Below are positions 5,125 through 36,000 of a stretch of 64,000 bases of DNA, piece by piece (the stretch's first letter is position 1; each line of letters opens with the position of its first letter). Under the pieces are notes generated by a model. It saw only the letters and a list, made by a program, of their open reading frames with translations, did no database searches and was not told the DNA's origin. Source of the DNA: Mycobacteriales bacterium (GTDB taxonomy: Bacteria > Actinomycetota > Actinomycetes > BP-191); NCBI GenBank assembly GCA_035714365.1, contig DASTMB010000037.1, forward strand, positions 159,647 through 223,646. Direction: 5' to 3'. Both the position numbers and the translations under genes were made by a program.

Positions 5125-5139
5125 GATTCAGCGCGAATC
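5125..5139. repeat. 15-bp dyad GATTCAGCGCGAATC (copy 1)
   Basis: Exact copy between convergent gene ends (5120 and 5163). Confidence 0.6.
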
Positions 5140-5162
5140 GGTGCGGCGCACTGACCTGGGGG

Positions 5163-5921
5163 TCACGGTGGGTCACGCCGTCGTCGGCCGACGGCGTTGA
5201 GGAACAGCCCGATCAGCACGACCCCGGTCACTGCCTCGCCGGCCACGAGGTAGCGGGCGTTGTCGCTGACCGGCACGATGTCGCCGTAGCCGACCGTCGT
5301 CACGGTCATGGCGCTGAAGTACAGCATCCGCCCGAACCGCTGCGTGGCGGCCGTCGGGTCACCGGCGTGCGCCTGGCGGAGCCGGCGGAACTCGTTCACC
5401 AACCCTGGACTCGCCGGAAGGTCCCAGTGCCGATAAACAATGGCGGCCTCCGACAGGTGGTGAATGTGCGGGGCCAAGCTGGCAAGACACGCTGAGCCGG
5501 CGGCGTCGGTGGGCTCGAATGCCAGCCACGCTATGCCAGGTTCGGCAGGGGGTGCCAGCGTCGGCCAGTCCTCGTATGAATGTAGGACCCCGTGACACTC
5601 AAGATCGGTGTGGGGGAAGAGTAGGCCGCCGCTTATCAGGGTGATGGTCAGCGATGGGTTGCTGCCGTCGGCCTGCCACATGACGTCGCCAACGAGCACG
5701 AAGTACCTCTCCTCATCACCCGTTCTCGTCGCGTTATATGCCACGTCCTGCAACTGCCAGTCGAAGTGCTGGTCGGCGGCGCGCAGGATGCCGGGTTCCC
5801 GGGCCAGGGTGGATTGGGTGAAGGCACCGTCCATGCGCGTGTAGCCCGCCGCGAACGCCGGGATGAGCGCCAGGTACGACAGGCCCCAGACGGCCGGTGA
5901 TCCGAGCAGCCGATGATGCAA
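5163..5921 (-). CDS. Potassium-channel-like protein (pore helix + TVGYGD selectivity filter + inner helix) with a very long loop between the outer TM helix and the pore
   Basis: C-terminal RMLYFSAMTVTTVGYGDIVPVSDNARYLVAGEAVTGVVLIGLFLNAVG matches KcsA-type pore/filter/TM2. The only candidate outer helix (SYLALIPAFAAGY) lies ~190 aa upstream. Start set at an in-frame TTG; the track ORF extends to 6191 through an Arg-rich, non-protein-like segment. Confidence 0.55.
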   Translation of the reverse strand: MHHRLLGSPAVWGLSYLALIPAFAAGYTRMDGAFTQSTLAREPGILRAADQHFDWQLQDVAYNATRTGDEERYFVLVGDVMWQADGSNPSLTITLISGGLLFPHTDLECHGVLHSYEDWPTLAPPAEPGIAWLAFEPTDAAGSACLASLAPHIHHLSEAAIVYRHWDLPASPGLVNEFRRLRQAHAGDPTAATQRFGRMLYFSAMTVTTVGYGDIVPVSDNARYLVAGEAVTGVVLIGLFLNAVGRRRRDPP

Positions 5922-6199
5922 CTTGTGGCGCGGCGCGTGCCGCCGGCGACGGAAGATCCACCGCGTCCGCGACGTACGGCCCTCGGCAACCGGCGACCGG
6001 CGCCGCCACCGCAGTCGCCGGTCAGTCCGCTCACGCTGACGCACACGGCAGACTTCGCCAATGTCTTGGGGCGCTCCTTGCGGATCGCGCTGAGTCCCGG
6101 CGGGAGCCGCATTTCCCTTGAATCGCGGTACAGCTCGTCGGCGGTGGCTCCTGCTGCGATCTCGATCTTGTTGTCGTGACCGGGCTCCCACAAAGGGCG

Positions 6200-6214
6200 G
6201 ATTCAGCGCGAATC
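6200..6214. repeat. 15-bp dyad GATTCAGCGCGAATC (copy 2)
   Basis: Exact copy in the 5921-6294 intergenic gap. Confidence 0.6.
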
Positions 6215-6293: not shown

Positions 6294-7772
6294 TTAGGCG
6301 GCGCGGTGCCAGGCGAAGGTGTCGGGGATTCCGTTGGTGTCGTCGGGGACGAGGTTGGGCGCGGCGCTGCTGAACGCGACGACGGACCCGTCGTCGCTGA
6401 CGGTGGGTTCGATGGCGTTGAGGGTGGCTTGGACGCCGTCGTTGGAGAGGGAGAGGAGTTGGTGCGCGCCGGTGGTCCGGTCGGTGAGGTACACGTCGCG
6501 GCCGCTGTCGTTCGTCACGGCTGGGGTGAGGTCGATGGGGCCGAGGTTGGTGGCAGCGCTTTCGTACGTGATCCAGCGGCCGTTGGCGCTGATCGCGGGG
6601 TTCGCGGAGAACTGGTCGGCGGGCAGCCCGCCGAGGCCGGTGGTGACGCGGCGCAGGGTGCCGGCGATCCGGTCGTAGAGGTAGATGTCGGGGGTGAGGT
6701 CGGGCTGGAGTTCCCGCCCGGCGGCGGTGGGGTCGCCGGGGACGAGGTTGTTGGCTTTGGACTGGAACACGATGTAGCGGCCGTCGCCGCTGAGGGTACG
6801 GTTCCCGCCACGATCAAAGTCGCTGAACGTCGTTTCGTTGTCCGCAGCCCAGCCCTCGGCGGAGCGGGAGATCATCCGGGTGCGCTTGGTGATCCGGTCG
6901 TAGAGAAAGACCTGGGTGAACCCTTCGCCGTTGAGGAACTGTCGGTGGAACGCCCATTCGGGTCCGTAGTCGGTGGTGTCGAAGATCGCCGCGTCGGCGG
7001 TCTGGAAGGTGATCCAGCGGCCGTCATCGGAGATCGACGCGTTGACCTTCTCGAAGCGGTGCGCGCGTGGGTGCGCGGAGCCGACCCGTTCGGTGCGGCC
7101 GGTGGTGAGGTCGCGGACGTAGACGTCCTGGACGAGGTTGTCGCCGTGACCGAGGGGGTCGTGCGGGACGAGGTTCGAGGCGCCGGATTGGAACACGACG
7201 TAGCGGCCGTTGCCGCTGATCGCGGGGTACTGCGCGTACGCGTTGTTCGGTTTGCCGTTGTAGCCGACCGAGACGGGGATGGTGCGGTGGCGCAGCCGGT
7301 CGCGCACGTACACGGCGAGCGTGTTCCCTGCTGGCTTGAAGCCGGGTACGAGCTGCCCGCAGCTGGTGAACGCGACGAACCGGCCGTCGCGGCTGACGGA
7401 GCTGGTTACCGGCGCGTCGGAGCCCTCCAATGTGGGGCAGCCGTGGGTGTCGGCGCTGACGAGTTCGGTGCGCCCGGTAGCGAGGTCCCGGGCGTAGACG
7501 TTGTAGCCGAGGCCGCCGTACCGGGCGGTGAGGCCGCAGTCCGCGGTGAGGCCACTGTCGTTGGAGGTAAAAGTGAGCAGGCGGCCGTTGCCGGACAGCG
7601 CAGGGTGGTCGGCGTAGCCGTACTGGGCGGTGCCTTGGCCGCCGCTGCTGCTCACTGATGCCCGCTCCAGTCGCCCGCTGGTCAGCGGCGGCGCGGCGCG
7701 GGTCGCGGGCGCGGCGGCGGCCACGGCGGCGAGGGCCGCTGCCGTGGCGAGGTGCGCTACCGCGCGCCGCAT
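6294..7772 (-). CDS. Secreted PD40/TolB-like beta-propeller repeat protein
   Basis: N-terminal signal peptide (MRRAVAHLATAAALAAVAAAAPATRA). Repeated ISxDGRxVxFxS ... D[VI]Y[VL]xD blades (DVYVRD, DIYLYD, DVYLTD). Confidence 0.7.
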   Translation of the reverse strand: MRRAVAHLATAAALAAVAAAAPATRAAPPLTSGRLERASVSSSGGQGTAQYGYADHPALSGNGRLLTFTSNDSGLTADCGLTARYGGLGYNVYARDLATGRTELVSADTHGCPTLEGSDAPVTSSVSRDGRFVAFTSCGQLVPGFKPAGNTLAVYVRDRLRHRTIPVSVGYNGKPNNAYAQYPAISGNGRYVVFQSGASNLVPHDPLGHGDNLVQDVYVRDLTTGRTERVGSAHPRAHRFEKVNASISDDGRWITFQTADAAIFDTTDYGPEWAFHRQFLNGEGFTQVFLYDRITKRTRMISRSAEGWAADNETTFSDFDRGGNRTLSGDGRYIVFQSKANNLVPGDPTAAGRELQPDLTPDIYLYDRIAGTLRRVTTGLGGLPADQFSANPAISANGRWITYESAATNLGPIDLTPAVTNDSGRDVYLTDRTTGAHQLLSLSNDGVQATLNAIEPTVSDDGSVVAFSSAAPNLVPDDTNGIPDTFAWHRAA

Positions 7773-11848: not shown

Positions 11849-11863
11849 GATTCAGCGCGAATC
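11849..11863. repeat. 15-bp dyad GATTCAGCGCGAATC (copy 3)
   Basis: Exact copy in the divergent promoter region 11771-11988. Confidence 0.6.
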
Positions 11864-11987: not shown

Positions 11988-12941
11988 ATGGACCGCACCA
12001 AGCAGTGGAGGGTGGCGGACCGGCACCGGGTGGAACTGGTCCGCTACCTGACGGCCCGCACCGGCGCCGCGGACATCGCCGAGGACGCCGCCGCGGAAGC
12101 GATCGCGGCCGCCGGGTCCGCTCATCTCCGCGACGAGCAGCACGCGCAGGCGTGGCTGCGCCGCGTCGGCTGGCATCGCTGCGTGGACGAGTTCCGGCAC
12201 CGCCGCACCCCGGAGTCGCTGTCGCGGGTCGCGGCGCCGTCGTCGACGCCCAGTGCGGAGGAGGTCGCCCTTGAGCATGACCTGGCGGTCCGGGTCCGGG
12301 CCGCGGTGGCGACGTTGCCGCCGCAGCAGCGCGTGGTCGTCACCGCCTACGCGCAGGGTGAGACGGTGCGGGTGATCGCTGCGCGACGGCGGCAGACCGT
12401 GAAGGCGGTGGAAGCGCAGCTCACTCGCGGGCTGGCGCGGGTGCGCGACGCGCTCAACGCGGGGGTCGCCGTGGTGTCGGGTCGGCTGCGGCTTCGCCGC
12501 GCTGCCGCGGTGTCGGCGGCGTCGATGGTCGTCACGGTCAGCGCCGCGCTGTGGCTCGGCGCGACCATCCCGGCGCCGGCCGCCACCTCCGGCGCGGCCG
12601 CCCACCCGGTGCGGTCGGACGCGTCCGGCGCTGTCGTCCGCGTCACCCACCGGGAGCGCACGCCAGCGGCGCGCCCGCAGTCGCCGGCGCCGCCGCACCG
12701 GCGGCCGCACCGCACGCCTGCCGTCCACCGGGCGGGGCACCGCGCGGCGTCGACGCTGCTCGCCCCGCCCGGGGTCACGGGTCCGGCCGGTATCTCGGTC
12801 CAACCGGGCAGCGTGGATCGGGACGGCGGCCGTCTCGGTGACGGGTTCGTCGCCGACGTGCTCGCCTGCATCGGGCATGGCGTGCGGGTCGAGGAGCAGC
12901 GGGTGTCGTGTCGGCCCGACGCCACCGTCTACATGCTGTAG
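11988..12941 (+). CDS. ECF sigma factor with a C-terminal TM helix and extracytoplasmic extension (membrane-tethered sigma/anti-sigma-like fusion)
   Basis: Region 2 (ELVRYLTARTGAADIAEDAAAEA ... AWLRRVGWHRCVDEFRHRR). Region 4 HTH (LPPQQRVVVTAYAQGETVRVIAARRRQTVKAVEAQLTRGLARVRDAL). Hydrophobic helix AAAVSAASMVVTVSAALWLGA, then ~130 aa. RBS GGGGGAGG upstream of the ATG. Confidence 0.65.
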   Translation: MDRTKQWRVADRHRVELVRYLTARTGAADIAEDAAAEAIAAAGSAHLRDEQHAQAWLRRVGWHRCVDEFRHRRTPESLSRVAAPSSTPSAEEVALEHDLAVRVRAAVATLPPQQRVVVTAYAQGETVRVIAARRRQTVKAVEAQLTRGLARVRDALNAGVAVVSGRLRLRRAAAVSAASMVVTVSAALWLGATIPAPAATSGAAAHPVRSDASGAVVRVTHRERTPAARPQSPAPPHRRPHRTPAVHRAGHRAASTLLAPPGVTGPAGISVQPGSVDRDGGRLGDGFVADVLACIGHGVRVEEQRVSCRPDATVYML

Positions 12942-13363
12942 CCGACGACGATGCCTTCGCTGCCGGGCTGCCACTTGAAGATCGCGGAGATCGGCGTCGG
13001 CGGGTCGACGTCGCTGCGGTAGGTGAACAGCACGTCGTAACTTCCGGTGTCGGCGCCGTTCTTCGGCACCGTCCAGCAGACCTGCGCGGTCGGCTGCGTC
13101 GCCGTCGACGTCGTGTAGTTGATCGCGGTGCCGTTGCTGCGCGCGCCGGTGAACTCGATGGTCCACAGCGGCCCGGTCGTGGGCGGGACCCGCAGTTCGC
13201 CGTTGCCGCAGATGGTCTGTCCGCTGGTGGTGAACGACGCGGTGAACCACATGTGCGGCCGTTCCACCTGGGGCAGCGGATCGGTGTCCGCGTGGGCGCC
13301 GTGGGCGGTGAGGAGGGTTCCGGCGGCCGTGGACGCGACGAGCACGACGCGGGCGACGCGCAT
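12929..13363 (-). CDS. Small secreted protein (144 aa), unknown function
   Basis: Signal peptide MRVARVVLVASTAAGTLLTAHGAHA. Immediately downstream of, and co-directional with, the sigma-fusion gene. Confidence 0.5.
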   Translation of the reverse strand: MRVARVVLVASTAAGTLLTAHGAHADTDPLPQVERPHMWFTASFTTSGQTICGNGELRVPPTTGPLWTIEFTGARSNGTAINYTTSTATQPTAQVCWTVPKNGADTGSYDVLFTYRSDVDPPTPISAIFKWQPGSEGIVVGYSM

Positions 13364-13381
13364 GGAGAACCTCCGGACGGG

Positions 13382-14500
13382 TCAGCCTCCCGGCGGCGGG
13401 GGGAGGGGAACATCGTAATGCGGGTCCCCGTCGGTTCGGCACTGTACGGCGTCCTGCTGCTCGGGCACCCACGGGCAGACGGGGGCGACCTCTTCCTGGA
13501 CCTCGAATCCGGGCACCGCGGAGACGCTGAGCACGTCGGCGTTCACCGGTGACGTGGTGCAGGTCGGCTGTCCGTCGATCGGCACGCACGCCCCGACCTC
13601 CCCGTCGGGCAGCGCGCCCGGCAGTCGCGGCAGCCGCACGCCGGTCACGAGCCGGCGGGCCGCTGCTGCCGGTGCCCGGCGCAGCAGCCGGCGCGCGGTG
13701 CGGGTCACCCCCACCGCGTCGCCGGTCGCGACCGCGGCGGCGGCGTCGCCGACACCATCGAGGACCCGGGCGACGGCGCGGGGGACCCGGTGCAGCGAGA
13801 TCGGCACCGGCAGTGGCTGTGTGGCGACGGCGGTCATGAAGACGCCGACCAGCGCCGCGTTCGCCACCGCGACCATCGCCGTCGACACCGCCCCGGGTGC
13901 GGCCGACCGGCGCCGAAGCCGGCCCCGCAGCGCGGCGAGGAACGCGGCGATGAGCCCGCCCCGTTGGCGCACGGCGTGCAGCGCCCGCGTCACCCGTTTC
14001 CGCGTCGCGGCCTCGGTCAGTCCCGTCTCGTCCGCGAGTTGGGAGTACGGCGCGGCGTCCACGTAGCGGCGGCGCAGCAACTCCTGCACCTCGGCGGGCA
14101 GCTCCTCGTAGGCCATGACGACGCGCGTCGCCGCGGTGACCCGCGGGGTCGCCCATAGCGAGACCGCGCCGTCCGGCGGATACGGGACCAGGGCCGGGCG
14201 GCGCCGCGCCCGCCGCCGCGCGTCCGTCGCCGCGTGACGTGCCGCGGTGAACAGCAGCGCGCGCCGGTGGTCGTCGTCAGTCAGCGCCGCCCACGACCGG
14301 TACACCGCGAGGTAGGCGCGCTGCGCCACGTCGTCACACTCGCTGCGATCCACGTACGCCAGTGACGACAGGAAGCGGTAGAGACCCGCGACCGTCTCGG
14401 CGTGGAACTCCTCGAACTCGCGCCCGATCCCCCGCGCGGTCTGACACGCGACCACCGACTGCCCCTTCACGTCCACGCCGCAGGCTGCGGCCACCCGCAC
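13382..14500 (-). CDS. ECF sigma factor fused to a TM helix and a Cys-rich C-terminal domain
   Basis: Region 2 (FEEFHAETVAGLYRFLSSLAYVDRSECDDVAQRAYLAVYRSW). Region 4 (LPAEVQELLRRRYVDAAPYSQLADETGLTEAATRKRVTRALHAVRQR). Hydrophobic segment AVSTAMVAVANAALVGVFMTAV. C-terminal domain with six Cys. Confidence 0.6.
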   Translation of the reverse strand: MRVAAACGVDVKGQSVVACQTARGIGREFEEFHAETVAGLYRFLSSLAYVDRSECDDVAQRAYLAVYRSWAALTDDDHRRALLFTAARHAATDARRRARRRPALVPYPPDGAVSLWATPRVTAATRVVMAYEELPAEVQELLRRRYVDAAPYSQLADETGLTEAATRKRVTRALHAVRQRGGLIAAFLAALRGRLRRRSAAPGAVSTAMVAVANAALVGVFMTAVATQPLPVPISLHRVPRAVARVLDGVGDAAAAVATGDAVGVTRTARRLLRRAPAAAARRLVTGVRLPRLPGALPDGEVGACVPIDGQPTCTTSPVNADVLSVSAVPGFEVQEEVAPVCPWVPEQQDAVQCRTDGDPHYDVPLPPPPGG

Positions 14501-14826: not shown

Positions 14827-15759
14827 ATGCCCGACCTAACCGCCGTCGGCATCACCGCCGACGACGAACCCGTCTACCGCGTCCTGCTCGACACCGACCG
14901 GCACCTCACCGTCGACCAGCTCGCCGCCGCCCTCGACCAACCGACCCGCGCCGTCGAGGACGCGATCGAACGACTACAACACCGCGGCTTCGTCGCCGAC
15001 GACGACCACGGCGCCGTCACCGCCGTCCCGGCCTGCGTCGCCGTCACCCGCGCCGCCGCGCGCCGGGAACAGGTTCTGCTCGACCAGCTCGCCGCGGTAC
15101 GCCGCGCCCGCAGCCAGTACACCGCCACCGCGCTACCGGTCGACCCGAGCCCGCACAGCGGCTCCCCGTTCCTCGGCATCATCACCGACCCCGGCGAACT
15201 GCACCGCTGGCGTAGCCGCGTCGCGGCGATGGCCGTCGATACCCTGCGCCGCACCGTCGTCGACGACGCGCCGCTACCCGAGCACGACCCCGACGTCGTG
15301 CGATTCGACCTGTATCAGCAGTCGGCGCTCACCGACGCCACCCGCCTCGCCGCGATCGACGACCCCGACCGGGGGCACCAGGTCCACGTCGTTGCCGCGC
15401 CGCTGCCCCCGCTGCTCATCGCCGACACCACAGTCGCCCTGTTCGAGCTCGGCCCGAGTAGCGGGTTCGTGCTCTACCCGTCGCGGCTCCTCGACGCGCT
15501 GCACGACTACTTCGCCCTCCTGTGGCGCGCCGCCGTGCCCATAGGCGCCCGCGACCCGGAAGGAGCCTGGCAACTCGACCAGGACCGGCGGCGGCTGCTG
15601 CGCCTACTCGCCACCGGCGCAAAGGACCAGGCGATCGCGCACCTGCTCGGCCTCGGATTGCGGACCGTCACCCGCCAGGTTGGTGAACTCCTCCGCGCCT
15701 TCGACGTGGAGACCCGCTTCCAACTCGGGGTGCAGGCCGCTGTCCACGACCTGCTCTAG
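14827..15759 (+). CDS. LuxR-family transcriptional regulator (paralog A)
   Basis: C-terminal GerE/LuxR HTH (RRRLLRLLATGAKDQAIAHLLGLGLRTVTRQVGELLRAFDVETRFQL). N-terminal winged-helix-like segment. RBS GGGGGAG before the ATG. Confidence 0.65.
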   Translation: MPDLTAVGITADDEPVYRVLLDTDRHLTVDQLAAALDQPTRAVEDAIERLQHRGFVADDDHGAVTAVPACVAVTRAAARREQVLLDQLAAVRRARSQYTATALPVDPSPHSGSPFLGIITDPGELHRWRSRVAAMAVDTLRRTVVDDAPLPEHDPDVVRFDLYQQSALTDATRLAAIDDPDRGHQVHVVAAPLPPLLIADTTVALFELGPSSGFVLYPSRLLDALHDYFALLWRAAVPIGARDPEGAWQLDQDRRRLLRLLATGAKDQAIAHLLGLGLRTVTRQVGELLRAFDVETRFQLGVQAAVHDLL

Positions 15760-16504: not shown

Positions 16505-16927
16505 ATGCGACTCAGCACCCGCACCGCCGCCCTGCTCACCACCGCGATCCTCACCGCCGCGCCGATCGCCGCGCACGCCAACGACGTGACGAAGGACGCG
16601 ACGCTCATCGGCAGCGGCGTCGGCACCACCTACCGGATCGACGGCGTGTCCTCGCCGACGCAGAACGCGCTGCTGGTGTCGGCGAGCCACGGCGGCGCCA
16701 CCACCGTCGACCTCAGCACGACCCCGCCCGGGACGGTGCAGATCCAGAACAACAGCACCGCGTCCTACACGTTCCGCAGCACCCTGTTCAACACCTCGGT
16801 GACCGTGCAGGCCGGCGCCACCGGCGTGGCGACCGTCAAGTCCACCAGTGCCGGCGCGTGCGCGACCGTGACGGCGGAGATCGCGGAGGGCACGGTCGTC
16901 GCGACCATCACCGTGTGCGTCGCCTAG
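16505..16927 (+). CDS. Small secreted protein (140 aa)
   Basis: AAGGAG RBS. Signal peptide MRLSTRTAALLTTAILTAAPIAAHA. Followed by a stem-loop. Confidence 0.6.
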   Translation: MRLSTRTAALLTTAILTAAPIAAHANDVTKDATLIGSGVGTTYRIDGVSSPTQNALLVSASHGGATTVDLSTTPPGTVQIQNNSTASYTFRSTLFNTSVTVQAGATGVATVKSTSAGACATVTAEIAEGTVVATITVCVA

Positions 16928-16980: not shown

Positions 16981-16995
16981 GATTCAGCGTGGATC
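16981..16995. repeat. 15-bp dyad variant GATTCAGCGTGGATC (copy 4)
   Basis: Abuts the hairpin, between convergent genes. Confidence 0.5.
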
Positions 16996-19838: not shown

Positions 19839-19853
19839 GATTCAGCGCGAATC
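19839..19853. repeat. 15-bp dyad GATTCAGCGCGAATC (copy 5)
   Basis: Exact copy between convergent gene ends 19820 and 19869. Confidence 0.6.
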
Positions 19854-22372: not shown

Positions 22373-22387
22373 GATTCGCGCTGAATC
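22373..22387. repeat. 15-bp dyad GATTCGCGCTGAATC (copy 6, opposite orientation)
   Basis: Reverse complement of GATTCAGCGCGAATC in the divergent region 22252-22498. Confidence 0.6.
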
Positions 22388-24060: not shown

Positions 24061-24510
24061 TCACCAGCGCAGCGTCTCCAGCCGCCGACCTGTCTCCTCG
24101 ACACGCCAGAACCGCCAGCCGTTGGTCTGCGCGGCGGCCCGCTCGGGGTTCAGCGCCGCAACGACCGCGCGAGCTGCCCCGGTCGCCGAGGTGAAGGACT
24201 GGTCGGCCAACGGCTGACTGGTCACGACGACCCGCTTGGTGGCCTGAAGGTAGGTGCCGGTGATCCGCTGACCGCGGTACTCCGCGTAGATCGCGACGGG
24301 ACCCCACGGGTCGCGTGGCGGTGCGGCATGGGTTTCGTGGTCGCGGGTGTAGTCCTTGACCGCGCGCGCCACGATTTCCGATTCGCTCACCTCGAACATG
24401 CGGGCCGCGAACCGCACCAGCCGCAGCGTGGCAACGTCGAGCCGCACCGTTCCACCGCTGACCACTGGACGAGCGGCGCCGCCCCCGGCCGGGGTTGCCT
24501 TCGAATTCAC
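24061..24510 (-). CDS. Small protein with an N-terminal RHH/CopG-like segment and a conserved C-terminal NGWRFWR motif (tandem paralog 1)
   Basis: VRLDVATLRLVRFAARMFEVSESEIVARAV (RHH-like). GTYLQATKRVVV ... SATGAARAVVAALNP ... TNGWRFWRVEETGRRLETLR. Start overlaps the stop of paralog 2 (24507-24510). Confidence 0.5.
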   Translation of the reverse strand: MNSKATPAGGGAARPVVSGGTVRLDVATLRLVRFAARMFEVSESEIVARAVKDYTRDHETHAAPPRDPWGPVAIYAEYRGQRITGTYLQATKRVVVTSQPLADQSFTSATGAARAVVAALNPERAAAQTNGWRFWRVEETGRRLETLRW

Positions 24511-24953
24511 GTTGAATCTGCCATCGTGTTCGAGTGCTTAGCCGCCGTGGCGTTAGGAGGCATGTACCGCACGGTGTCCAGACGCGCGCCAGAGTCCGCT
24601 ATTCGCCAGAAGTGCCACCCGTTGGTCTGCGTGTGGGAGCGCCGCGGGTTCAGCATCTCGACCACCGCGCGCGCCGCGCCCGACGGAGACCGGAATGACC
24701 GCTCCGTCGACTCGCCCGGGTTCACGACTAGGCGCCGCGTGGCCGGGAGGTACGTGCCGTCCACACGGACCCCCGCGTACTCGCAGAACACCGGCACCGG
24801 CTCCCAACGGTGCGCCGGGCCGCTACCTCGGGCACCGATCTGCGCCACCGCCCGGATCACAACCTGCGAGTCCGTGATGCCGTGAAGCCGTGCGGCGAAC
24901 CGGACCGCGAGCGCGGTCGCCTGATCGACCACGATGGTGTCGCCGTAGTTCAT
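24507..24953 (-). CDS. Small protein with an N-terminal RHH-like segment and a conserved C-terminal NGWHFWR motif (tandem paralog 2)
   Basis: ALAVRFAARLHGITDSQVVIRAV. GTYLPATRRLVV ... SPSGAARAVVEMLNP ... TNGWHFWRIADSGARLDTVR. Collinear with paralog 1. Confidence 0.5.
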   Translation of the reverse strand: MNYGDTIVVDQATALAVRFAARLHGITDSQVVIRAVAQIGARGSGPAHRWEPVPVFCEYAGVRVDGTYLPATRRLVVNPGESTERSFRSPSGAARAVVEMLNPRRSHTQTNGWHFWRIADSGARLDTVRYMPPNATAAKHSNTMADST

Positions 24954-25094: not shown

Positions 25095-28000
25095 CTAGCG
25101 ATCGAGTGGTTCCGGCAGGTCGCGGGCGGTGTCGTCGCGCAGGAGGAGCTGCGCGTGCTCGACGGCGGCGAGTTCCGGGTGCTCTGGGTTGGCTCGGTCG
25201 AGGGGGCCGAGGGGCTGGTCGGGGTCGGTGATGCCGTGGGTGAGGCGGTAGGTCTCGATGGTGTGGGCGGCGTGGCGCCAGATGCCGCGCCGGTAGGGGT
25301 CGTGGGGGCGGGGGCCGAGGGTGGTGGTGAGGTAGCGGGGCGGGTTGTGTTCGATGTTGGTGAGGCGTTGGTGGGCGCGGTGGTTGATTTCGTCGCGGGC
25401 CTGGTCGGCTGCGCGCCGCTCGGGGGCGGTTGCGTGTTCGTGGTGGAGCCGCTGCTGTTCGTGGGCTTCGAGGGCGTGCGCGCGTTGCAGCGCGGCGGTC
25501 TCGCGTTGGGTGGCGTGCTGGACGCGGCGTTGGGCGGCGCGGAGTTGGTGGGCGTGGTCGCGGCGGCGGCGTGGGTGGAGGCGTTGCCGGCGGGGCTGGT
25601 CACGTAGGTGGCCTATGGCCTCGTGGCCGGCGGCGGCGTCGAGCGCGGCGTTGGCGGCGTCGGTGTAGGCGGCGGCGAGTTCGGCGCGCCGGTTGGGGAG
25701 CATGGCGCGCTGGGCGGCGTCGCCGCGGCTGACGGCGGCGCGGAGCTGGTCGTCGGTGGCGTCGGCGAGGGGCCGGTTGTCCTCGTCGATGGGCGTGGCG
25801 GCGCCGGTGGCGTCGCGGTGCTGGTGGAGGGCGTGGCGGGCTTGGTGCCAGTCGTCGTGCCGGGCGGGCGGGTCGGCGCTGGTGGGGGCGGGGCCGAGGG
25901 GGCGGTGGTCGGTGTCGGGGATGTGCCAGCGGTCGCGGTAGGTCTGGATGTGGCCGGCGGCATCGCGCCAGGTGCGGCGGCGGGTGACGTTGTTGGTGGG
26001 TGGGGGGCCGAGGGCGGTGAGGTGGGGGGCGGTTCCGGCGCGGGCGGCGCGTTCGGCGGTGATGCCTTGGCGGCGGAGGTGGTCGCGGTAGGCGGCGTCC
26101 GCGTCGTCCGCCGCGGCCGGGCTGTGGTGGGGGTCGGCGGCGTGGTCGGCGTGGGTGGCGCGCAGGACGGCGGTGGTGTTGTCGCCGGGGCCGCCGTCGT
26201 GGAGGTCGAGGGCGGCGCGTTGGGCGCGGGAGCGGGTCGCGGCGGTGGTGAGCTGGGTGAGCGGCGGCGGGTCGCCGGCGGGTGGGTGGTGTTCGGCGCG
26301 CAGGAGCTGGGTGTCGTGGTCGCGGTCGGGGTTGGTGGCGTAGAGCTGGGTGTGTTGGCGGCCGCGGGAGAGGGTGGTGTAGAGGCTTTCCCGGTAGAGG
26401 GCGTCACCGGCGGCGTCGACGAACACGTGCTCGGCGCTGAGCCCTTGGGCGCGGTGCAGGGTGTGCGCATAGCCGTGGTCGAGGCCGCCGCGGCGCAGGT
26501 AGCGGGCGCTGACCTGGTGGTGGGTGCCGTCGGGGAGGGTGACGGTGAGGGTGCCGGCCTCGGGGTCGACGGTGGTGACGGTGCCGAGGTCGCCGTTGAG
26601 CAGGCCGCTGTTGCGGTAGTCGTTGCGCCGCGCGGCGACGAGGTCCCCGACGGCGAAGCGGCGTTCGCCGAGCGGGCCGGCGGTGACGACGAGGTCGGGG
26701 CCGGTGAGCAGCCCGGCGTCGGTGAGGCGGGCGCGGGCGCGGGTGTTGAGGTCGGCGACGGCGCGGCGGCGGGTGGCGAGCATGACGTGCGCCTCGGGTG
26801 ATTCAGCCAGAATCCGGGCGGCCGGTGTGCCGGTGCTGGTGGCGGTGGTGTGGAGGGCGGTCCACCAGTCGGTGACGAGCTGGTCGCGGGCGGCGTCGAC
26901 GTCGGGTTGCACGGTGACCCGCCCGTGGTCGACGTAGGCGTCGAGGGCGGCGTGGACGACGGGCGGGGCGGCGTCGCGGATGGCGCCCAGCGCGGCCCGT
27001 TCCCAGCCGTGGACTTGGCGCATGTTGCGGGTGAGGGTGACCGGCGCGAGTCGGTGCGCGAGGGCCCGGAACAGCCCCCCGGCGTCGATCTCGGGGAGTT
27101 GCCGGTAGTCACCGACGAGGACGAGCTTCGCCTGGTCCCGCCGCGCGTAACCGTGCAGGGCGGCGAGATCGCGGCTGCCGAGCATCCCGGCCTCGTCGAC
27201 GACGATCACGCTGCCGGGCGGCATCGGCCCGTGCCGTGGGTCGTCGAGCTCGGCGAGGAGGCGGGTGATGGTCCAGGTGGTGATGCCGGTGGCGTCGGTG
27301 AGCCGGGCGGCGGCGCGGGCGGCGACGGCGGCGCCGACGACGTGGTGCCCGCCGGCGGTCCAGGCGTCGTGTACGGCGCCGAGGAGGTGGGTCTTACCGG
27401 CGCCGGCGACGCCGATGACGACCTCGACTCCGGCGCCGCCGGTGAGGAGCCGGACGGCGGCGAGTTGCTGCTCAGGGTTGAGGTGGTGCCGTTCCAGGGT
27501 GGCGCCGAGGACGGCGGCGGGCACGACCCCGAGCCCGTCGTGGGCGCGGTCGGCGGCTTGGGTGATCACGGTCCGTTCGAGGTGGAGGAGGTCGGTGGTG
27601 GTGTAGCGGGTCTCGCCGTGCCCGGGAGGGCGGGTGTCGCCGTGGCGTTCGTCGGGGACTGCGCGCAACGCCACCACGTCGCGGTGCCGGAGGAACGCGG
27701 CGGCGTCCGCCTCGATCGCCTCGATCGGGTCGCCGTCGACGCGCGCGACGCAGAGTGCTTGGACGACGTCGCGGCGGTGGAAGTGCGACGCGGCGGCGGT
27801 GAGCCCAGTCGGGGCGAGCATCGCCGCCTGCTCCTGCGCCCGGTCGACCGGCGCCCGGTGGTGGCGGTGCAGCAGCGCGTAGCGGGTGGGGGCGGTGAAC
27901 CCGAGCTGGTCGGCGCGGGCCTGCCAGTCGGCGGCGAGGCGGTGCTGGTCGTAGGGGTGCTTCCGGCGCCGCGTGTCCAGGGTGGCGACTTGCGCGGCAC

Positions 28001-28766
28001 GCGGCCCGTCGAGGCCGAGTTCGGCGAGGCGGGCCTGGATCTCCTCCGCGCGTTGCGAGAAGGCGCGCAGCACCTCGGCGGGGATGCCCTCGACCTCGGA
28101 CAGGCCGTTGCCGCGCACCGTCCAGGCGAGGCCGAGGTCGCGCACGTTGTGCCGGAGTTGGGAGCGGTAGAGCATCCCCGCGGTCTTGGCTTCCCGGAAC
28201 AGGGCGCGCCCGTCGACGGCGTACCAGCGGCCGTCACTGCCCTGCACGGTGTTCGCGGTGACGACGTGGGTGTGCAGGTGCGGGTCCCCAGCACGGGAGA
28301 CGCGGTGTCGGAACGCCGCGCCGACGAGGCCCCGGCCGGGTTCGACCGTGACCCCGTCCTTGCCGCGCCGGACGTGGCCGGCGTGCCGGTCGAGGTAGCC
28401 GAGCGCGGCGGCGACAGCGTGGTCATGCGCGGCGCGGATCTGCTCCGCGAGTTCGGGCTGCCCCAGCGCGGCGAGGAGGCTCAGCGACTTCGGGGCGTTG
28501 AACGTGAGGTCGTAGCCGCGGACCCGGCCGGCGCGGCGCTGCGCGAGCAGGTCCACGCCGGTGCCGGGCTGGTAGCCATCGAGGAGGGTACGCAGCGGGT
28601 CGGCGGTCACTTCCCCGGTGAGGCCGAGCTGGTGCCGGCCGGCGCCGACCCAGTAGCCGGGCGCCTCCCCGGCGCCGAGGTAGTACGCCTCGGTGGTGCG
28701 CGCCACCTTGTTCAGGTAGTAGTCCTCGCCGCGGCCGCCGGCGCCGAGGACCTGAATGCTCAACAT
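25095..28766 (-). CDS. MobF/TrwC-family relaxase fused to a C-terminal helicase (TraA/TraI-like conjugative relaxase)
   Basis: N-terminal Tyr pairs (EDYYLNK ... EAYYLGAGEAPGYWVGAG). Three-His motif GDPHLHTHVVTANTVQ. Helicase Walker A VVIGVAGAGKTHLLG and Walker B VIVVDEAGML. Long C-terminal region. Confidence 0.85.
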   Translation of the reverse strand: MLSIQVLGAGGRGEDYYLNKVARTTEAYYLGAGEAPGYWVGAGRHQLGLTGEVTADPLRTLLDGYQPGTGVDLLAQRRAGRVRGYDLTFNAPKSLSLLAALGQPELAEQIRAAHDHAVAAALGYLDRHAGHVRRGKDGVTVEPGRGLVGAAFRHRVSRAGDPHLHTHVVTANTVQGSDGRWYAVDGRALFREAKTAGMLYRSQLRHNVRDLGLAWTVRGNGLSEVEGIPAEVLRAFSQRAEEIQARLAELGLDGPRAAQVATLDTRRRKHPYDQHRLAADWQARADQLGFTAPTRYALLHRHHRAPVDRAQEQAAMLAPTGLTAAASHFHRRDVVQALCVARVDGDPIEAIEADAAAFLRHRDVVALRAVPDERHGDTRPPGHGETRYTTTDLLHLERTVITQAADRAHDGLGVVPAAVLGATLERHHLNPEQQLAAVRLLTGGAGVEVVIGVAGAGKTHLLGAVHDAWTAGGHHVVGAAVAARAAARLTDATGITTWTITRLLAELDDPRHGPMPPGSVIVVDEAGMLGSRDLAALHGYARRDQAKLVLVGDYRQLPEIDAGGLFRALAHRLAPVTLTRNMRQVHGWERAALGAIRDAAPPVVHAALDAYVDHGRVTVQPDVDAARDQLVTDWWTALHTTATSTGTPAARILAESPEAHVMLATRRRAVADLNTRARARLTDAGLLTGPDLVVTAGPLGERRFAVGDLVAARRNDYRNSGLLNGDLGTVTTVDPEAGTLTVTLPDGTHHQVSARYLRRGGLDHGYAHTLHRAQGLSAEHVFVDAAGDALYRESLYTTLSRGRQHTQLYATNPDRDHDTQLLRAEHHPPAGDPPPLTQLTTAATRSRAQRAALDLHDGGPGDNTTAVLRATHADHAADPHHSPAAADDADAAYRDHLRRQGITAERAARAGTAPHLTALGPPPTNNVTRRRTWRDAAGHIQTYRDRWHIPDTDHRPLGPAPTSADPPARHDDWHQARHALHQHRDATGAATPIDEDNRPLADATDDQLRAAVSRGDAAQRAMLPNRRAELAAAYTDAANAALDAAAGHEAIGHLRDQPRRQRLHPRRRRDHAHQLRAAQRRVQHATQRETAALQRAHALEAHEQQRLHHEHATAPERRAADQARDEINHRAHQRLTNIEHNPPRYLTTTLGPRPHDPYRRGIWRHAAHTIETYRLTHGITDPDQPLGPLDRANPEHPELAAVEHAQLLLRDDTARDLPEPLDR

Positions 28767-28886: not shown

Positions 28887-29188
28887 GGTTGACCAGCTCC
28901 GCGCGGTGCGCCGCCGCCGGCGTTGACCACCGCCCTGCCGGGGCCGGCATCGCCAGATGCAAGGGTGTACCGGGTCGGGCGGCCGAAGGCCGCAGCGATC
29001 GGGCGTGCCGGGGACAGGGCAGCGGGTGCGGTCGGCGGCGGCGTCCGGGTCGGCGGTGAGGGTCGTGGTGGCATGGCGGGCAGGGTCGGCGGCGGGGTTG
29101 ACCGGGCGTTGACCAGGGCGGCGCGGCGATCGATTCAGCGTGAGTCGGGGCATGCGAAAGCCGCCGCCCCGGGTTGACCAGGGCGGCG
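28887..29188. repeat. Iteron cluster of five GTTGACC(A/G)(G/C) repeats (two identical 16-mers GTTGACCAGGGCGGCG), plus one GATTCAGCGTGAGTC dyad variant at 29132-29146; candidate oriT region
   Basis: Direct repeats at 28887, 28922, 29098, 29108 and 29171. Located immediately upstream of the relaxase start, between relaxase and ssb. Confidence 0.5.
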
Positions 29189-29209
29189 GCTCTCGTCGCG
29201 AGGGTGCGG

Positions 29210-31606: not shown

Positions 31607-32545
31607 TCACGGCGTCGCCTGGGCGGTGAGGGGGTCGGTGGGGGTGCCGGTGGTGGCGGCGATGCGGTCGAGGACGGCCCGGGCGGTGGTGGTGACGGCG
31701 CGGGCGCTGGCGGCGAGGACGTCGAGGTCTCCGGCTGCCCACTGCGCGACGTAGGGGAGGGAGTAGTCGTCGCTGGGCAGGCCGCTGGCGTGGCAGACGA
31801 TGTAGGCGACGGACTCGGCTTCGACCTCGCCGCGTTCGCGGGGGGTGGTTCCCTCGGCGTGCAGGAGGACGTGCGCGAGTTCGTGGGCGAGGGTCTTGCA
31901 CGCCTGGGCGGCGCTGAGGTCGGCGCGGACCCGGACTTCGCGGGTGGCGAAGTTGGCCCACCCGTTGGCGTGGCCGCAGTCGCCGCGATTCAGCGCGTAT
32001 CCGGCGTCGCGGATCTGCGCGGCGAGGGCGTCCCACAGTCGGCCGGGGTCGGCGCCGTCGAGGAGGAGCGGCGGCACGTCGGGGATGGGGTCGCCGTCGG
32101 TCTGCGACACGTCGAACACGTAGGCGATGCGGAAGCCGCGCAGCCGTCGGCGGGGCGGGGTGGCGTCGGGCCTCTCGCCGGTGCTGGCGCTGGGGGTGCT
32201 CTGGTCGTCGTCGGGCTGGTCGATCCGGTACCGCAGGGGCGCGAAGATCGCGATGCCGCGCTCTCCCTTGCGGACCTGCCGTCCGACGCGCTGCCAGGTG
32301 CGGTATCCGGCGACGCGGGTCGCGTCGGGGCGCTGCATGACGATCAGGAGGAGGTTGTGCAGCGAGTAGTCATGGAACCGGGCGGCGGCGGTGAGCATCG
32401 CCTGCCACTGCTGGCCGTGGACTAGCCCGGCGACGCGTTCGGTGAGTTGCTCGTGGAGGGCGGCGATTCGGTCCGAATCGCGAACGGCGGCGGCGACGCG
32501 TCGGCCGCGCTGCGCGGCTCGGGCGCGGGTTGTGGTGGTAGCCAC
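31607..32545 (-). CDS. ArdC-like antirestriction protein (N-terminal ssDNA-binding ArdC domain + C-terminal zincin-like metallopeptidase domain)
   Basis: FHDYSLHNLLLI (ArdC-N). HELAHVLLH HExxH motif in the C-terminal domain. Confidence 0.75.
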   Translation of the reverse strand: MATTTTRARAAQRGRRVAAAVRDSDRIAALHEQLTERVAGLVHGQQWQAMLTAAARFHDYSLHNLLLIVMQRPDATRVAGYRTWQRVGRQVRKGERGIAIFAPLRYRIDQPDDDQSTPSASTGERPDATPPRRRLRGFRIAYVFDVSQTDGDPIPDVPPLLLDGADPGRLWDALAAQIRDAGYALNRGDCGHANGWANFATREVRVRADLSAAQACKTLAHELAHVLLHAEGTTPRERGEVEAESVAYIVCHASGLPSDDYSLPYVAQWAAGDLDVLAASARAVTTTARAVLDRIAATTGTPTDPLTAQATP

Positions 32546-32953
32546 GAGTGGAGTCCTCCCGTCACTGGGCCTGCGGACCGGGTGTGGAGGCGTCCTGACG
32601 GCCGCCTCAAAAACCGGGTCTCCCGACGCAGCAGTGGGGCGCGGGCGCAGGGGCCCCGGGCAAAGGACGGCCGGAGGCCGAGGCGCGGCGAAATAAGCGG
32701 AGCCGGCCGAGGGCCGGCGCAGCGCGTCGCGCCGGTCCTTTGTCTGGGTGGGGCGCCCGTGCCACGCTGAGGCGGCGGGAGAGCCGGTTTGAGGGCTCTT
32801 TCAGCGCCGCCCGTAGGGCGGCTCCACATTGCCCCGCAGGGGCCGCCGCCGCAGGCGGCGCTGCTCTGTTCGGGTGGTTGTCGGGAGCTGCCGCGACATT
32901 GCGTGCCGCGTCGGCGAACCCATCACGGCGGCGGGACCGCATTCCGGCCGCTG

Positions 32954-33000
32954 CTGGTCAACAGGTGGTCAAAGGCCGGTCAATGGCTGGTCAATGGCTG
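32954..33000. repeat. Array of (C)TGGTCAA repeats, the reverse complement of the GTTGACCAG iteron, including an 11-bp tandem GGTCAATGGCT x2
   Basis: CTGGTCAAC, TGGTCAAAG, then CGGTCAATGGCTGGTCAATGGCTG. Same motif as the 28887-29188 array but inverted; sits upstream of the LysM/BTAD gene. Confidence 0.5.
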
Positions 33001-33093
33001 TGGGGACGCTCGCGGTGAAAGGAATCCGCGGCTGCTGCGTGTGGTCGTACGGGCGCCGGCTAGCGCGGCAATAGGTGTTACGGGGGAACAGAC

Positions 33094-36000
33094 ATGAGCG
33101 GGTGGCGTAGGTCTCGGTATGCCGTCGCGGCGGCGCCGGCTCGGCGTCGGTCCGGGCCGGGGTTGCTGGCGTGGCTGCGGCGGCTGCTGCGGGCGCTGCT
33201 GTCGCTGGCTGGGCTCACCGCACTAGCTGGGGGCGTGCCGGTGGCGTTGTGGCGGGTCGCCGGCTGGCCGCTGCCGCACCGGGTACCGGCGTGGGCGGCG
33301 CTGCGCCGGGGCCTGACCGAGCCGGTCGACGACCGGGTGCTGCTCAACGTGATCGTCGTCGTCACGTGGCTGGCGTGGGCGTACCTGCTGGTGACGATCC
33401 TGGTCGAGATCGCCGCCGCGGTGGCGCCGCGCCGAGTTCGCTGGCATGTCCCCGGCCCCGGCGCGGTGATCGCCCGCCGGCTCATCTCGGGACTGCTCGC
33501 CGCGTCCGCGGCGGTGCCGGTGGTGGCGCTGCCCGCATCCGCCGCCGCCCCACCGGCGCGCCCACCCGCCGCGACCAGCGTCCTCAACGCCGCCGCGCCG
33601 ACCGCCGGCCCCTCCACCGGCGCCGCGGCGCGGCCGGACACCTACACCGTCCGCCCCGGGGATACCCTGTGGGGCATCGCCGCCCACGAGCTCGGCCCCA
33701 CCTCGTCACCGGCGCAGGTCGCGGCGCGCTGGCCCCGCTGGTACGCGGCGAACCGCGGCCGCCCCCAACCCGCCGGCGGCGGGGCACTCACCGACCCGAA
33801 CCGGCTACTGCCCGGCTGGCAACTCCGCGACCCCGACACCCCCGCCCCACACCACACGCCGCCGGCGCGGGCGACCCGCCGCCGCACCACACCGCCCCCC
33901 TCCCCGGCCCCGGCCCCGGCGCCGCACCGCCCGGCGGCCCGGCACACCCCGCCACCCGCGGCGCGCCCCGAGCAGCCCTCCACGCCCGCCGACGCGGCAC
34001 CGACGCGGCACTCCGGCCGCCCCGACGACCAGCCAGCGAACCGGTCGGCGATCCCCGCCGCCCTCGTGCCGATCGGCGGCAGCGCCCTGTTCGCCGCCGC
34101 GGTCGTCTCCACCCTCACCCGGGCGCGACGGCGGCGCGGCGCCCCCGCGCTGCCCGCCCCGCAGGCGGCGGCGCGGCTCGAAACCCTGCTCCGGGTCGCC
34201 GCCGAACCCGACGACCTCACCGACCTGCTCCGCGCCCTCGACCTCCTCGCCGCCCGCCTCGCCGACACCACCATCGACGTGCCACCGATCCTCGGCGCCC
34301 GGCTGCGCCCCACCGCCGTCGACCTACTCCTCGCCGCCACCCGCACCGACGCACCCGCACCGTTCCGCCCCCTCGACGGCGGGCGCGTCTGGACCGTCCG
34401 CCGCACTCAGCTCCCCGCCGTCCGCGACGACGCCACCCCCTGCCCACTACCCACGCTCGTGCCCGTCGGCCGCGACACGGACGGGCTCGTGCTGCTCCAC
34501 CTCGAACACGCCGGCGCCGTCGCGGTCACCGGCACCCCCGACGCGCGGCGACGCCTGCTCACCAGCATCGCCGCCGAACTCGCCGTCGCCCCCTGGCCCA
34601 CCTGGGTCGACGTCACCACCCTCGGCCTACCCCGCGACCTCACCCGCCTCGACCCCGAACGCCTCCACCCCGCCACCACCCTCGACGAGCCGACGCTGCG
34701 CACCCTCACCGCCGCCGACACCCCCACCAGCACCGACCCGGAGGCGCCGGCCGCCGCCCGTATCCGCGCCCCCTGGCAGGACCGCCCCGCGCCCCGCGTC
34801 CTCCTCGCCGCCACCCCACTACCCGAAGCCGCCCTCGCCGCGCTCGGCGAGCACGCCACCCGACCCGGCTCCACCCTCACCGCCCTGACCGCCGGCGAAT
34901 GGCCGCACGCCCGCTGGACGTTCCACATCGACGACGACGGCACCCTCACCGTCCCCGAACTCGGCCTGCGGCTCCACGCCGTCACCGTCACCACCACCCG
35001 GCTCCCGCAACTCGCCGAACTCCTCGAGAACGCCCGCGCCGCCACCACCGACGACGACGACGAGGACCCGCGCGCACCCGCCGCGGCCACCAGCACCCCC
35101 GCCGACGACGCCGGGCAGGCGCCGCCCGACCCGGCCGCAGTCGACCCGGACCCGCAGCCCGCGCCGCCGCAGACCAGCCCCGCCGATTCAGCCCGAATCG
35201 ACGCGAACCCCACCCCCGCCGCCACCACGACCGCGGCCCCCGCCGCCACGGTCACCGACCCGACCCCCGCCGCCGGCCACGCGGTCGACGGCACCGCCGC
35301 GTTGGCCCTCGCGGACCCGGGCGACGACCTCGACCGCGCCGTCGCCGCCTACCTCACCGCCGCGCCCGGCACCGTCCAAGTCCGCGGCTTCGCCGGCCCC
35401 GCCGTCACCGCCCCCGGCACCATCGAATCCCGCCGCGTCGCCACCCTCACCGAACTCGTACTCCTCCTCGCCGCCAACCCCACCGGCCTCTACCCCACCG
35501 ACATCGCCGCCGCCCTATGGCCCGACCGCACCGTCAGCTCCCAAACCATCAGCGCCACCCTCTGCCGCGCCCGCGGCTGGCTCGGCACCGCCACCGACGG
35601 CACCCCACACCTCCCCCCGGCCGGCGCCGGACGAGTCCGTCTCTCCCCCACCGTCCTCGTCGACTGGCAGCTATTCACCGCCCTGGTCGACCGCGCCCGC
35701 CGCCACCCCGACCGGGCACCCGCCGACCTCACCACCGCCCTGCACCTCATCAACGGCGGGTTCCTCACCGACCGCCCCGACGGCCGCTACCACTGGCTCA
35801 CCGACACCGACCTCGAACACACCCTCCCCGCCGCCGTCCTCGACGCCGCGCACCAACTCGCCCGCCACCACCTCGACACCGGCAACCCCGCCGCCGCCCG
35901 CGATACAGCCCGAATCGCGCACCGCGTCGACGACTGCGACGAACGCCCCTGGCGCGACCTCATGGAAGCCGAAGCCGCCCTCGGCCACCCCCAGCGCGTC

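Follow-up and report, generated by a model that had tools for sequence, protein, structure and literature searches.

ICE-1 and its 15-bp dyad

We investigated a 64,000-nt stretch of contig DASTMB010000037.1 (assembly GCA_035714365.1; hereafter, the window), which belongs to a Mycobacteriales metagenome-assembled genome (MAG). The window partly covers a conjugative element of 43.9 kb, ICE-1, along which a 15-base inverted repeat, GATTCAGCGCGAATC (hereafter, the dyad), recurs approximately once per 3 kb. The left attachment site of ICE-1, attL, is in a tRNA-Gly(CCC) gene adjoining a tyrosine integrase gene (L004 1525-1596; L004 is the DNA fetched leftward of the window, and a window coordinate equals the L004 coordinate minus 7777), and at attR, window positions 37732-37755, 24 nt from the 3' end of the tRNA gene recur. 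Because the 3' end of the tRNA gene is repeated at attR, the element is an integrative and conjugative element (ICE) with a length of 43.9 kb.

Genes were called by third-position G+C, and their domains were assigned with Pfam. ICE-1 encodes a VirB4-like ATPase, a type IV coupling protein (T4CP), a TrwC/MOBF relaxase, a single-stranded DNA (ssDNA)-binding protein (SSB), ArdC, and a ParB-family protein; its left part, in L004, holds the remaining type IV secretion system (T4SS) genes, an SLT-WhiB-HTH_17 operon (the HTH_17 protein being Xis-like), the tyrosine integrase gene, and tRNA-Gly(CCC). It also carries three ECF-like sigma factor genes, two of which flank a small gene for a 144-aa product, two paralogous TrmB-N/LuxR-C regulators with dual helix-turn-helix (HTH) domains, and two paralogous RAMA-like small proteins. 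This regulatory gene load is unusually rich for an ICE.

The window contains 11 matches to GATTCAGCGCGAATC at two or fewer mismatches, against a chance expectation of 0.06, and none of 100 dinucleotide-preserving shuffles of the window attained this number. As the window has a G+C content of approximately 74%, a chance origin of this AT-rich dyad is very unlikely. Five of the 11 matches are exact, and with two further exact copies to the left of the window, ICE-1 holds 13 copies at this threshold, seven of them exact (Table 1). An arms-only pattern, GATTC-N5-GAATC, adds one copy with perfect arms and three weak copies, and ICE-1 has about 13-20 copies in all. In a de novo scan, GATTC-N5-GAATC was the top-ranked 5-N5-5 dyad of ICE-1, with 10 perfect-arm copies, approximately 2300 times the expectation. 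A first-pass annotation of this DNA had already pointed to the inverted GATTC/GAATC arms, and the copy positions it gave were reproduced, except that the copies placed at 31986 and 32464 start one base later, at 31987 and 32465. The arms are invariant, with a strong preference for AGCGC as the spacer. Each half-site reads approximately GATTCRS, with 1 bp between the two, and GATTCAGCCTGAATC and GATTCGGTCCGAATC are the perfect-palindrome forms. Similarity among the ICE-1 copies is confined to the 15 bases.

The dyad did not occur outside ICE-1 in the host DNA examined. The host flanks examined total 36 kb, of which 26.2 kb belong to the window, 8.1 kb extend beyond its right end, and 1.6 kb precede the element on the left; they yielded no copies at three or fewer mismatches, and nothing lies to the right of window position 35916 even at this threshold. 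When up to two arm mismatches and any spacer were allowed, the window gave 20 copies in its ICE portion and none in its host portion. If the copies were evenly spread over the 79.9 kb examined, the probability that all 13 would land in ICE-1 is P = 4e-4. The restriction of the dyad to the conjugative element, and its absence from the right-hand 26 kb, as proposed at first pass, thus hold across ICE-1 and the 36-kb host flank. An exact-15-mer scan of genome contigs returned at least 120 stretches, of which those listed were single matches in unrelated taxa. The exact 15-mer was also found in 48 stretches of IMG/VR viral contigs (47 with a single match and one with a copy at each contig end); these are scattered chance matches and never clustered.

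Within ICE-1, intergenic DNA makes up 13.4% of the sequence, and it contains all seven exact copies and nine of the 13 copies overall (binomial P = 6e-6). The seven copies previously described as intergenic (5125, 6200, 11849, 16981, 19839, 22373, and 29132) do lie between genes. A site is present in four of five convergent gaps and three of six divergent gaps, and in only two of many tandem gaps, in agreement with the earlier description that most copies are at convergent 3' ends or in divergent gaps. Counted by site, the nine intergenic copies include three in divergent gaps, one of these being the gap upstream of the SLT-WhiB-HTH_17 operon, and four where convergent genes end; genes themselves contain at least four copies. 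Two of the site-bearing convergent gaps measure just 42 and 48 bp. The distribution thus places the sites at the borders of opposed transcription units. Regarding orientation, 11 of the 13 copies are on the same strand (11:2).

Conservation across four related elements

ICE-2, ICE-3, and ICE-4 were found from the closest relaxase and T4CP homologues, in other metagenome samples. ICE-2 (L126 and L152; JGI 3300062838) is integrated at tRNA-Gly(GCC) (L152 1987-2062), and its relaxase and T4CP are 64% and 67% identical to those of ICE-1, respectively; ICE-3 (L127, L149, and L155) and ICE-4 (L128) were partly sampled. ICE-2 contains 13 copies of the dyad at two or fewer mismatches, of which four are exact, and 2 kb of its host flank contains none. 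ICE-3 and ICE-4 both bear members of the dyad family, and all four motif-bearing ICEs are high in G+C (70-74%).

We compared these with outgroups, namely, distant relatives from a relaxase-alignment search of metagenome contigs (the relaxase alone gave nothing). Across 20 outgroup loci (L129-L148; relaxases at most 44% identical; approximately 170 kb), there was one match at two or fewer mismatches and no perfect-arm copy, and a further outgroup locus with a T4CP of 54% identity (L154) had no copy. Megablast of 25 kb of ICE-1 against PLSDB plasmids and INPHARED phages returned no match, and no description of the element family or the motif was found in the literature searched.

Table 1. Dyad copies and other mapped features of ICE-1. 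Positions refer to the window unless L004 is given; mismatches are counted against GATTCAGCGCGAATC.
Feature	Position	Strand	Context	Counterparts in related ICEs
Exact copy	L004 3043	+	Left of window	
Exact copy	L004 5235	-	Left of window	
Palindrome TTGACCGGTCAA	L004 5389-5400		Upstream of T4SS operon	Present in ICE-2; one base different in ICE-3
Weak copy GATCCAACCTGAATC	3466..3480	+	T4CP codons 4-8	Exact copy in ICE-2, two-mismatch copy in ICE-3; rare CGA and AAT kept in all three
Exact copy	5125..5139	+	T4CP stop 4 bp before; stop of convergent ion-channel gene 23 bp after	Exact copy at ICE-2 T4CP stop, reverse orientation
Exact copy	6200..6214	+	Between PD40 gene 3' end and ion-channel gene 5' end	
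Exact copy	11849..11863	+	Divergent gap, 266-aa gene / ECF-like sigma gene A	
ECF-like sigma factor genes (three)	within 11988-14500 and 23384-23839			
144-aa gene	12929-13363		Flanked by two ECF-like sigma factor genes	
TrmB-N/LuxR-C regulator	14827-15759			
Weak copy	15302		Arms-only pattern search	
140-aa gene	16505-16927		Borders gap with 16981 copy	
Variant GATTCAGCGTGGATC, two mismatches	16981..16995	+	Convergent gap	Flipped exact copy in homologous ICE-2 gap
404-aa gene	17328-18542		Borders gap with 16981 copy	
TrmB-N/LuxR-C regulator 2	18861-19820			
Exact copy	19839..19853	+	48-bp convergent gap, 18 bp past regulator 2 stop	ICE-2 exact copy overlaps homologous stop codon
Exact copy	22373..22387	-	Divergent gap, trypsin-like gene / 262-aa gene	
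RAMA-like genes (two)	24061-24953			
Weak copy AATTCACGTTGAATC	24504..24518	+	41-bp gap separating the two RAMA-like genes	
TrwC/MOBF relaxase gene	25095-28766	-		
In-gene copy, two mismatches	26800..26814	+	Relaxase codon ~652; sense strand GATTCTGGCTGAATC	Conserved in ICE-2 and ICE-3 via rare ATT (3% of Ile codons) and GAA; not in ICE-4
GGTCAAC iterons (five)	28888-29179		Flank candidate oriT, same orientation	
Candidate oriT block	28946-28995	-	ssb-relaxase gap	Nearly invariant in five related loci
Variant GATTCAGCGTGAGTC, two mismatches	29132..29146	+	ssb-relaxase gap, adjoining candidate oriT	Same place and same orientation in all four ICEs
ParB/Noc-like protein, 602 aa	29715..31523	-	ParB_N, ParB-type HTH, 380-aa C-terminal extension	
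One-mismatch copy	31987..32001	+	Within ardC	
Perfect 15-bp palindrome GATTCGGTCCGAATC, perfect arms	32465..32479		ardC codons ~23-27; rare GAT and CGA	GATACAGGCCGAATC at homologous place in ICE-2
ardC leader, 270 bp	32546-32830		Non-coding, upstream of minus-strand genes	~90% identical in ICE-1 and ICE-2
GGTCAAC, four tandem copies	32956-32995		Upstream of ardC leader, 11-bp period	
One-mismatch copy	35185..35199	+	Within BTAD/LysM gene; rare GAT, TCA, and CGA	
Copy GATACAGCCCGAATC, two mismatches	35902..35916	+	Within BTAD gene (codon ~910); rare GAT, ACA, and CGA	Identical at homologous ICE-2 codons

Sites recur at homologous places among the elements: in the ssb-relaxase gap (four ICEs, one orientation), at the T4CP stop, past the regulator 2 stop, 11-38 bp upstream of the start codon of the SLT-WhiB-Xis operon (three ICEs), in the gap between the 140-aa and 404-aa genes, at T4CP codons 4-8, at relaxase codon ~652, and at BTAD codon ~910. 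At these places, 12-15 of the 15 motif bases are identical and the 40-bp flanks are at background identity. Furthermore, the in-gene copies use codons that are rare in ICE-1 (ATT, 3% of Ile codons; AAT, 5%; GAT, 6%; CGA, 4%; ACA, 2%; TCA, 4%), and these codons, with 2-6% usage, are kept in two to three ICEs at positions where neighboring synonymous positions vary. Judging from these alignments, rare codons preserve the in-gene copies at their places. The dyad sites exist, are known only from one ICE clade, and are under selection at the DNA level, and the cis-element network as such is solid.

The orientation of the sites bears on how they act. It is flipped at three homologous positions between ICE-1 and ICE-2, and the ICE-2 copies are split 6 versus 7 with no bias; therefore, the 11:2 bias of ICE-1 is not a property of the family. 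The flips and the lack of strand bias fit a symmetric dimer on double-stranded DNA and not a strand-specific signal. Another reading is that the dyad acts as ssDNA or RNA, either as a hairpin of the transferred strand (for priming or as secondary relaxase sites) or as a REP-like or terminator hairpin, and this could account for the orientation shared by 11 of the 13 ICE-1 copies, for the copy adjoining the candidate origin of transfer (oriT) in all four ICEs, and for the stop codons that precede many copies. However, the RNA hairpin has a stem of 5 bp (two GC and three AU pairs) with a folding energy of −2.6 kcal/mol (z = −1.3), and 31 of 200 shuffles fold equally well. In-context folds of the dyad were unremarkable, with no T-run after it, and a terminator scan and Rfam gave nothing at the dyad sites. 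We consider action as a single strand highly improbable.

The dyad resembles repetitive extragenic palindromic (REP) sequences and terminators in being a short palindrome often found past stop codons in convergent gaps, but it is too short and weak to fold, lacks a U-tract, and is also present in promoter gaps and genes. A REP family or a miniature inverted-repeat transposable element was ruled out, as there are no conserved flanks or host-flank copies and the repeat spans only 15 nt, against approximately 20-40 nt for a REP palindrome; an intrinsic terminator was likewise ruled out, as there is neither a GC-rich stem with a U-run nor a scan match at the sites. The first-pass annotation had offered a REP-like, terminator-associated repeat as its alternative, and this was not supported, given the weak 5-bp stem, the missing T-run, and the lack of flank conservation and of host-flank copies.

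As side observations, a DUF3800 gene (36315-36899) is in a low-GC (64.5%) segment by attR, and a second one (51535-52221) is in the host flank. In addition, ARAGORN called a tRNA-Arg(GCG) at 46056-46134 inside a 922-aa open reading frame (ORF) with a strong coding signal, where Rfam reported no tRNA at its gathering threshold; the call is probably a false positive.

Candidate binding proteins

We predict that a dimeric protein of this ICE family recognizes the dyad as double-stranded DNA and that this protein is most likely the ParB-like one, a prediction in which our confidence is about even. The ParB-family gene recognized at first pass was confirmed by Pfam, TIGR00180, and PDB matches. Residues 45-222 form a bona fide ParB/Spo0J/Noc N-terminal domain and HTH, with the nucleotide-binding GxxRxxA box (GERRYLA) at residues 101-107 (PF02195, E 7e-9), a TIGR00180 score of 89.2 bits against a cut-off of 58.45, and an HTH that matches PF17762 (E 2.4e-11) and aligns with Noc (7nfu). 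Structure-sequence matches included Spo0J (PDB 1vz0, E 8.5e-21) and KorB (8qa8, E 2e-6). The C-terminal extension (residues ~290-320 and 345-505) contains a Cys/His motif, EPCHA...VVYVCTDP.RH, a charged coiled-coil-like helix, a helical domain, and a basic tail, and the motif EPCHA...VC.D..RH is common to two distant homologues (P0003 and P0004). An AlphaFold2 model of the protein was of low confidence (pLDDT 58.8), too low for a fold search with the extension.

Several observations point to this protein. Each of the four motif-bearing ICEs has a homologue adjoining ssb. ICE-1, ICE-2, and ICE-4 have the same recognition helix, SQPSVQRRL, in proteins that share only 44-50% identity overall. In the alignment, the residue equivalent to position 173 of Caulobacter ParB is Q, and basic residues are at 179 and 184; in ParB and Noc, a Q173-type pattern with basic residues at 179 and 184 reads adenine at the outer half-site position (PMC7383237), and the dyad has an invariant A2/T14. 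The half-sites GATTCAG and GATTCGC match the parS half-site GTTTCAC at five of seven positions, with the TTC/GAA triplets spaced 1 bp wider than in parS; canonical parS, NBS (the Noc site), and OB (the KorB site) sequences are absent from ICE-1. As a 15-bp near-palindrome with 13 copies on the same replicon, the dyad can be set beside ParB-family sites, which are palindromes or near-palindromes of 13-16 bp, although its center is asymmetric, unlike those of parS, NBS, and OB. Because ParB-family sites are often in genes or far from promoters, the distribution of the dyad appears better matched by this family than by a classical operator: OB, with 16 bp, may lie more than 1 kb from a promoter (PMC11790492), and bisS sites are located within inrR and ssb (PMC12409273).

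The motif and the ParB-like gene are found together in the four ICEs, and the outgroups L129-L148 and L154 have no ParB-like homologue and essentially no dyad. However, the clade also shares the two TrmB/LuxR-like regulators, an HTH_17 Xis-like protein, WhiB, and ECF-like sigma factors, so co-occurrence does not discriminate among possible binders. A distant homologue on pTL2A, a conjugative plasmid of Cellulosimicrobium (L207, NZ_CP101476.1), is not accompanied by a dispersed dyad network in a de novo scan. ParB-like homologues are very rare (11 matches), and tblastn against plasmids yielded matches to the N-terminal domain only. Among the distant homologue loci, L150 has one perfect-arm palindrome in its own parB, which is not significant after multiple testing, and L151 has none.

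Besides this shared complement of DNA-binding proteins and the pTL2A result, other points weigh against assigning the dyad to the ParB-like protein. In ICE-2, an out-of-frame deletion (L126 7600-7760) runs from ardC codon ~31 to parB codon ~150; the N-terminal domain of the ParB-like protein and half of its HTH are lost, and the remnant has its sole in-frame start inside the HTH. The 13 sites of ICE-2 are nevertheless about as well preserved as those of ICE-1, which implies either a recent deletion or a different binder. The ICE-3 recognition helix has three substitutions, with the dyad arms unchanged. Moreover, a symmetric ParB dimer would not usually be expected to have a site with a conserved but asymmetric spacer, and R204, a conserved parS contact of ParB and Noc, is not conserved in the alignment. 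Finally, the absence of the dyad from the host rests on the 36 kb of flank.

Alternatively, the dyad could be the operator of another ICE regulator, chiefly the paired TrmB-N/LuxR-C proteins, with the HTH_17 Xis-like protein as a further possibility; the ParB-like protein would then have a different target or none. ICE-1 and ICE-2 each have intact copies of both TrmB/LuxR-like regulators, whereas the parB of ICE-2 is truncated; an exact site abuts the regulator 2 stop codon in both elements; and a site is located shortly upstream of the SLT-WhiB-Xis start codon in three ICEs. TrmB-family sites, such as the TGM motif, are typically dyads with 5-6-bp arms and an N5 spacer, which also counts for such a regulator. 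On the other hand, both HTHs of these regulators diverge between ICE-1 and ICE-2, their putative recognition helices differing at many positions, whereas the motif is identical at 15 of 15 positions. The promoter gaps upstream of either regulator gene contain no site, and most sites are at convergent 3' ends or in genes, an uncommon placement for the sites of a classical transcription factor.

A second cis-element, GGTCAAC/TTGACC, suits these regulators better, as its iterons and the palindrome TTGACCGGTCAA are located at promoters. It comprises five same-orientation iterons flanking the candidate oriT and four tandem copies upstream of the ardC leader (Table 1). In ICE-4, every copy of the second element is GGCCAAC instead of GGTCAAC, with the dyad arms and the ParB helix unchanged. 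At present, we regard another ICE regulator as a possible but rather unlikely binder of the dyad. RAMA-like proteins, ArdC, and PadR were rejected as binders because each is absent from ICE-1 or ICE-2, the fully sampled pair.

A host factor co-opted by this ICE family, for example, a global regulator or a nucleoid-associated protein, would explain why the ICE-2 sites persist without an intact ParB-like gene, and it is compatible with the high G+C content of all four motif-bearing ICEs and with the Mycobacteriales origin of the ICE-1 MAG. However, chromosomal sites would be expected of a host factor, and no copies, even degenerate ones, were found in the 36-kb host flank of ICE-1 or the 2-kb flank of ICE-2, and essentially none in approximately 170 kb of other high-GC conjugative-element loci. 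A host factor is therefore disfavored, and we consider it very unlikely.

Returning to the ParB-like protein, the closest known analogues are KorB/OB of plasmid RK2 and BisD/bisS of ICEclc, with Noc/NBS nearest by protein sequence. Similar to the KorB/OB system of the IncP-1 plasmid RK2 (PMC11790492), ICE-1 combines a ParB-family protein on a conjugative element with around a dozen dispersed short palindromes that have AT-rich arms and a GC-rich center; some copies are beside promoters and others distant, and transfer genes are the presumed targets. However, ICE-1 has no recognized KorA-like partner (none emerged from general scans, and no search aimed at KorA was made) and no IncC/ParA match, and its protein resembles chromosomal ParB/Noc (E 1e-20) more closely than it does KorB (E 2e-6), with an unrelated 380-aa extension. 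Its site, unlike OB, has 15 bp and an asymmetric conserved spacer, and many copies are at convergent ends or in genes with rare codons. In addition, the replicon is an ICE with an actinobacterial host.

BisD/bisS of the Pseudomonas element ICEclc (PMC12409273) also involves an ICE-encoded ParB-like protein with an extra domain and a gene near ssb, its parS-like sites can be in genes, and whole-ICE action has been proposed. BisD differs in having only two 23-bp sites with 11-bp inverted repeats, from which it slides to 11 promoters, whereas ICE-1 has 13-20 short sites; BisD activates with BisC, and no BisC-like gene was recognized in ICE-1. Noc/NBS and ParB/parS (PMC7383237) share a homologous N-terminal domain and HTH with the ICE-1 protein, whose helix shows the Noc-like Q173 and basic residues at 179 and 184, and Noc sites are likewise dispersed. 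By comparison, the ICE-1 triplets are 1 bp wider apart, and there is no ParA match, no evident membrane-targeting helix, and a mobile replicon.

The first-pass annotation had proposed a dispersed operator or centromere-like network for the ParB-like protein. A dispersed protein-site network fits our results and the link to ParB is plausible from the sequence comparisons, but a centromere or partition role is unlikely because ICE-1 encodes no ParA that we could find: there was no Pfam match to ParA, CbiA, or AAA_31 among the ICE ORFs of at least ~120 aa in the window, nor in the JGI annotation of the left end.

The leading region and a proposed role

The ssb-relaxase gap contains a nearly invariant 50-nt block, CTGCGGCCTYCGGCCGCCC.ACCCGGTACACCCTTGCATCTGRCGATGCC, which consists of a GCGGCC/GGCCGC hairpin followed by a conserved tract. 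We consider this block a candidate oriT/nic region at which the MOBF relaxase would act. Its 18-mer had one unrelated chance match among viral contigs, with a G+C content of 48%. The genes ardC, parB, and ssb are on the opposite side of the candidate oriT from the relaxase gene and are transcribed toward it, as expected for leading-region genes. The non-coding leader upstream of ardC is conserved between ICE-1 and ICE-2 far above the coding sequences (Table 1). Its predicted transferred strand, folded as ssDNA, forms a single long hairpin (−110.7 kcal/mol, z = −6.4). We take this hairpin to resemble the Frpo-type single-strand promoters of conjugative-plasmid leading regions; it is thus a candidate Frpo-like promoter or single-strand initiation site (ssi). 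On pTL2A, three longer GC-rich inverted repeats (3096-3150, 5451-5500, and 7055-7110) flank the orphan ParB-like gene, and these may be leading-region hairpins.

We infer protein binding to the dyad, the ParB-like identity of the binder, and the consequences of binding. The ParB-like protein would be made early in the recipient from the leading region and, after the ICE has become double-stranded, would bind to its dispersed sites. By analogy with KorB or BisD, nucleation or loading at the sites could act across the whole element, silencing, insulating, or organizing the ICE. Binding might repress the SLT-WhiB-Xis operon and the T4SS operon, in which T4CP codons 4-8 hold a copy, and the bound protein could serve as a roadblock or insulator against read-through at terminator-less convergent operon ends. 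That a ParA-less ParB/Noc-like protein, expressed early from an ssDNA-promoter-like hairpin, loads onto 15-20 sites, some of them embedded in genes by means of rare codons, as an element-wide insulator or silencer ("ICE chromatin") is a tentative proposal, which we hold to be doubtful as a whole.

If this proposal is true, KorB and BisD would be joined by a third ParB-based system of long-range regulation, with an architecture of its own and the first in Actinobacteria, in which a whole element is controlled from dispersed sites without ParA or KorA, in another phylum and with another site geometry. The presence of sites in 40-50-bp terminator-less convergent gaps suggests a roadblock or insulator role in high-GC bacteria. 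The 15-mer is defined, each element has approximately 13 mapped positions, with homologous ones known across four elements, and the candidate binders are few. To our knowledge, the function of the ParB-like genes of plasmid leading regions is poorly understood; if the dyads dock the ParB-like protein, this leading-region function would become directly testable.

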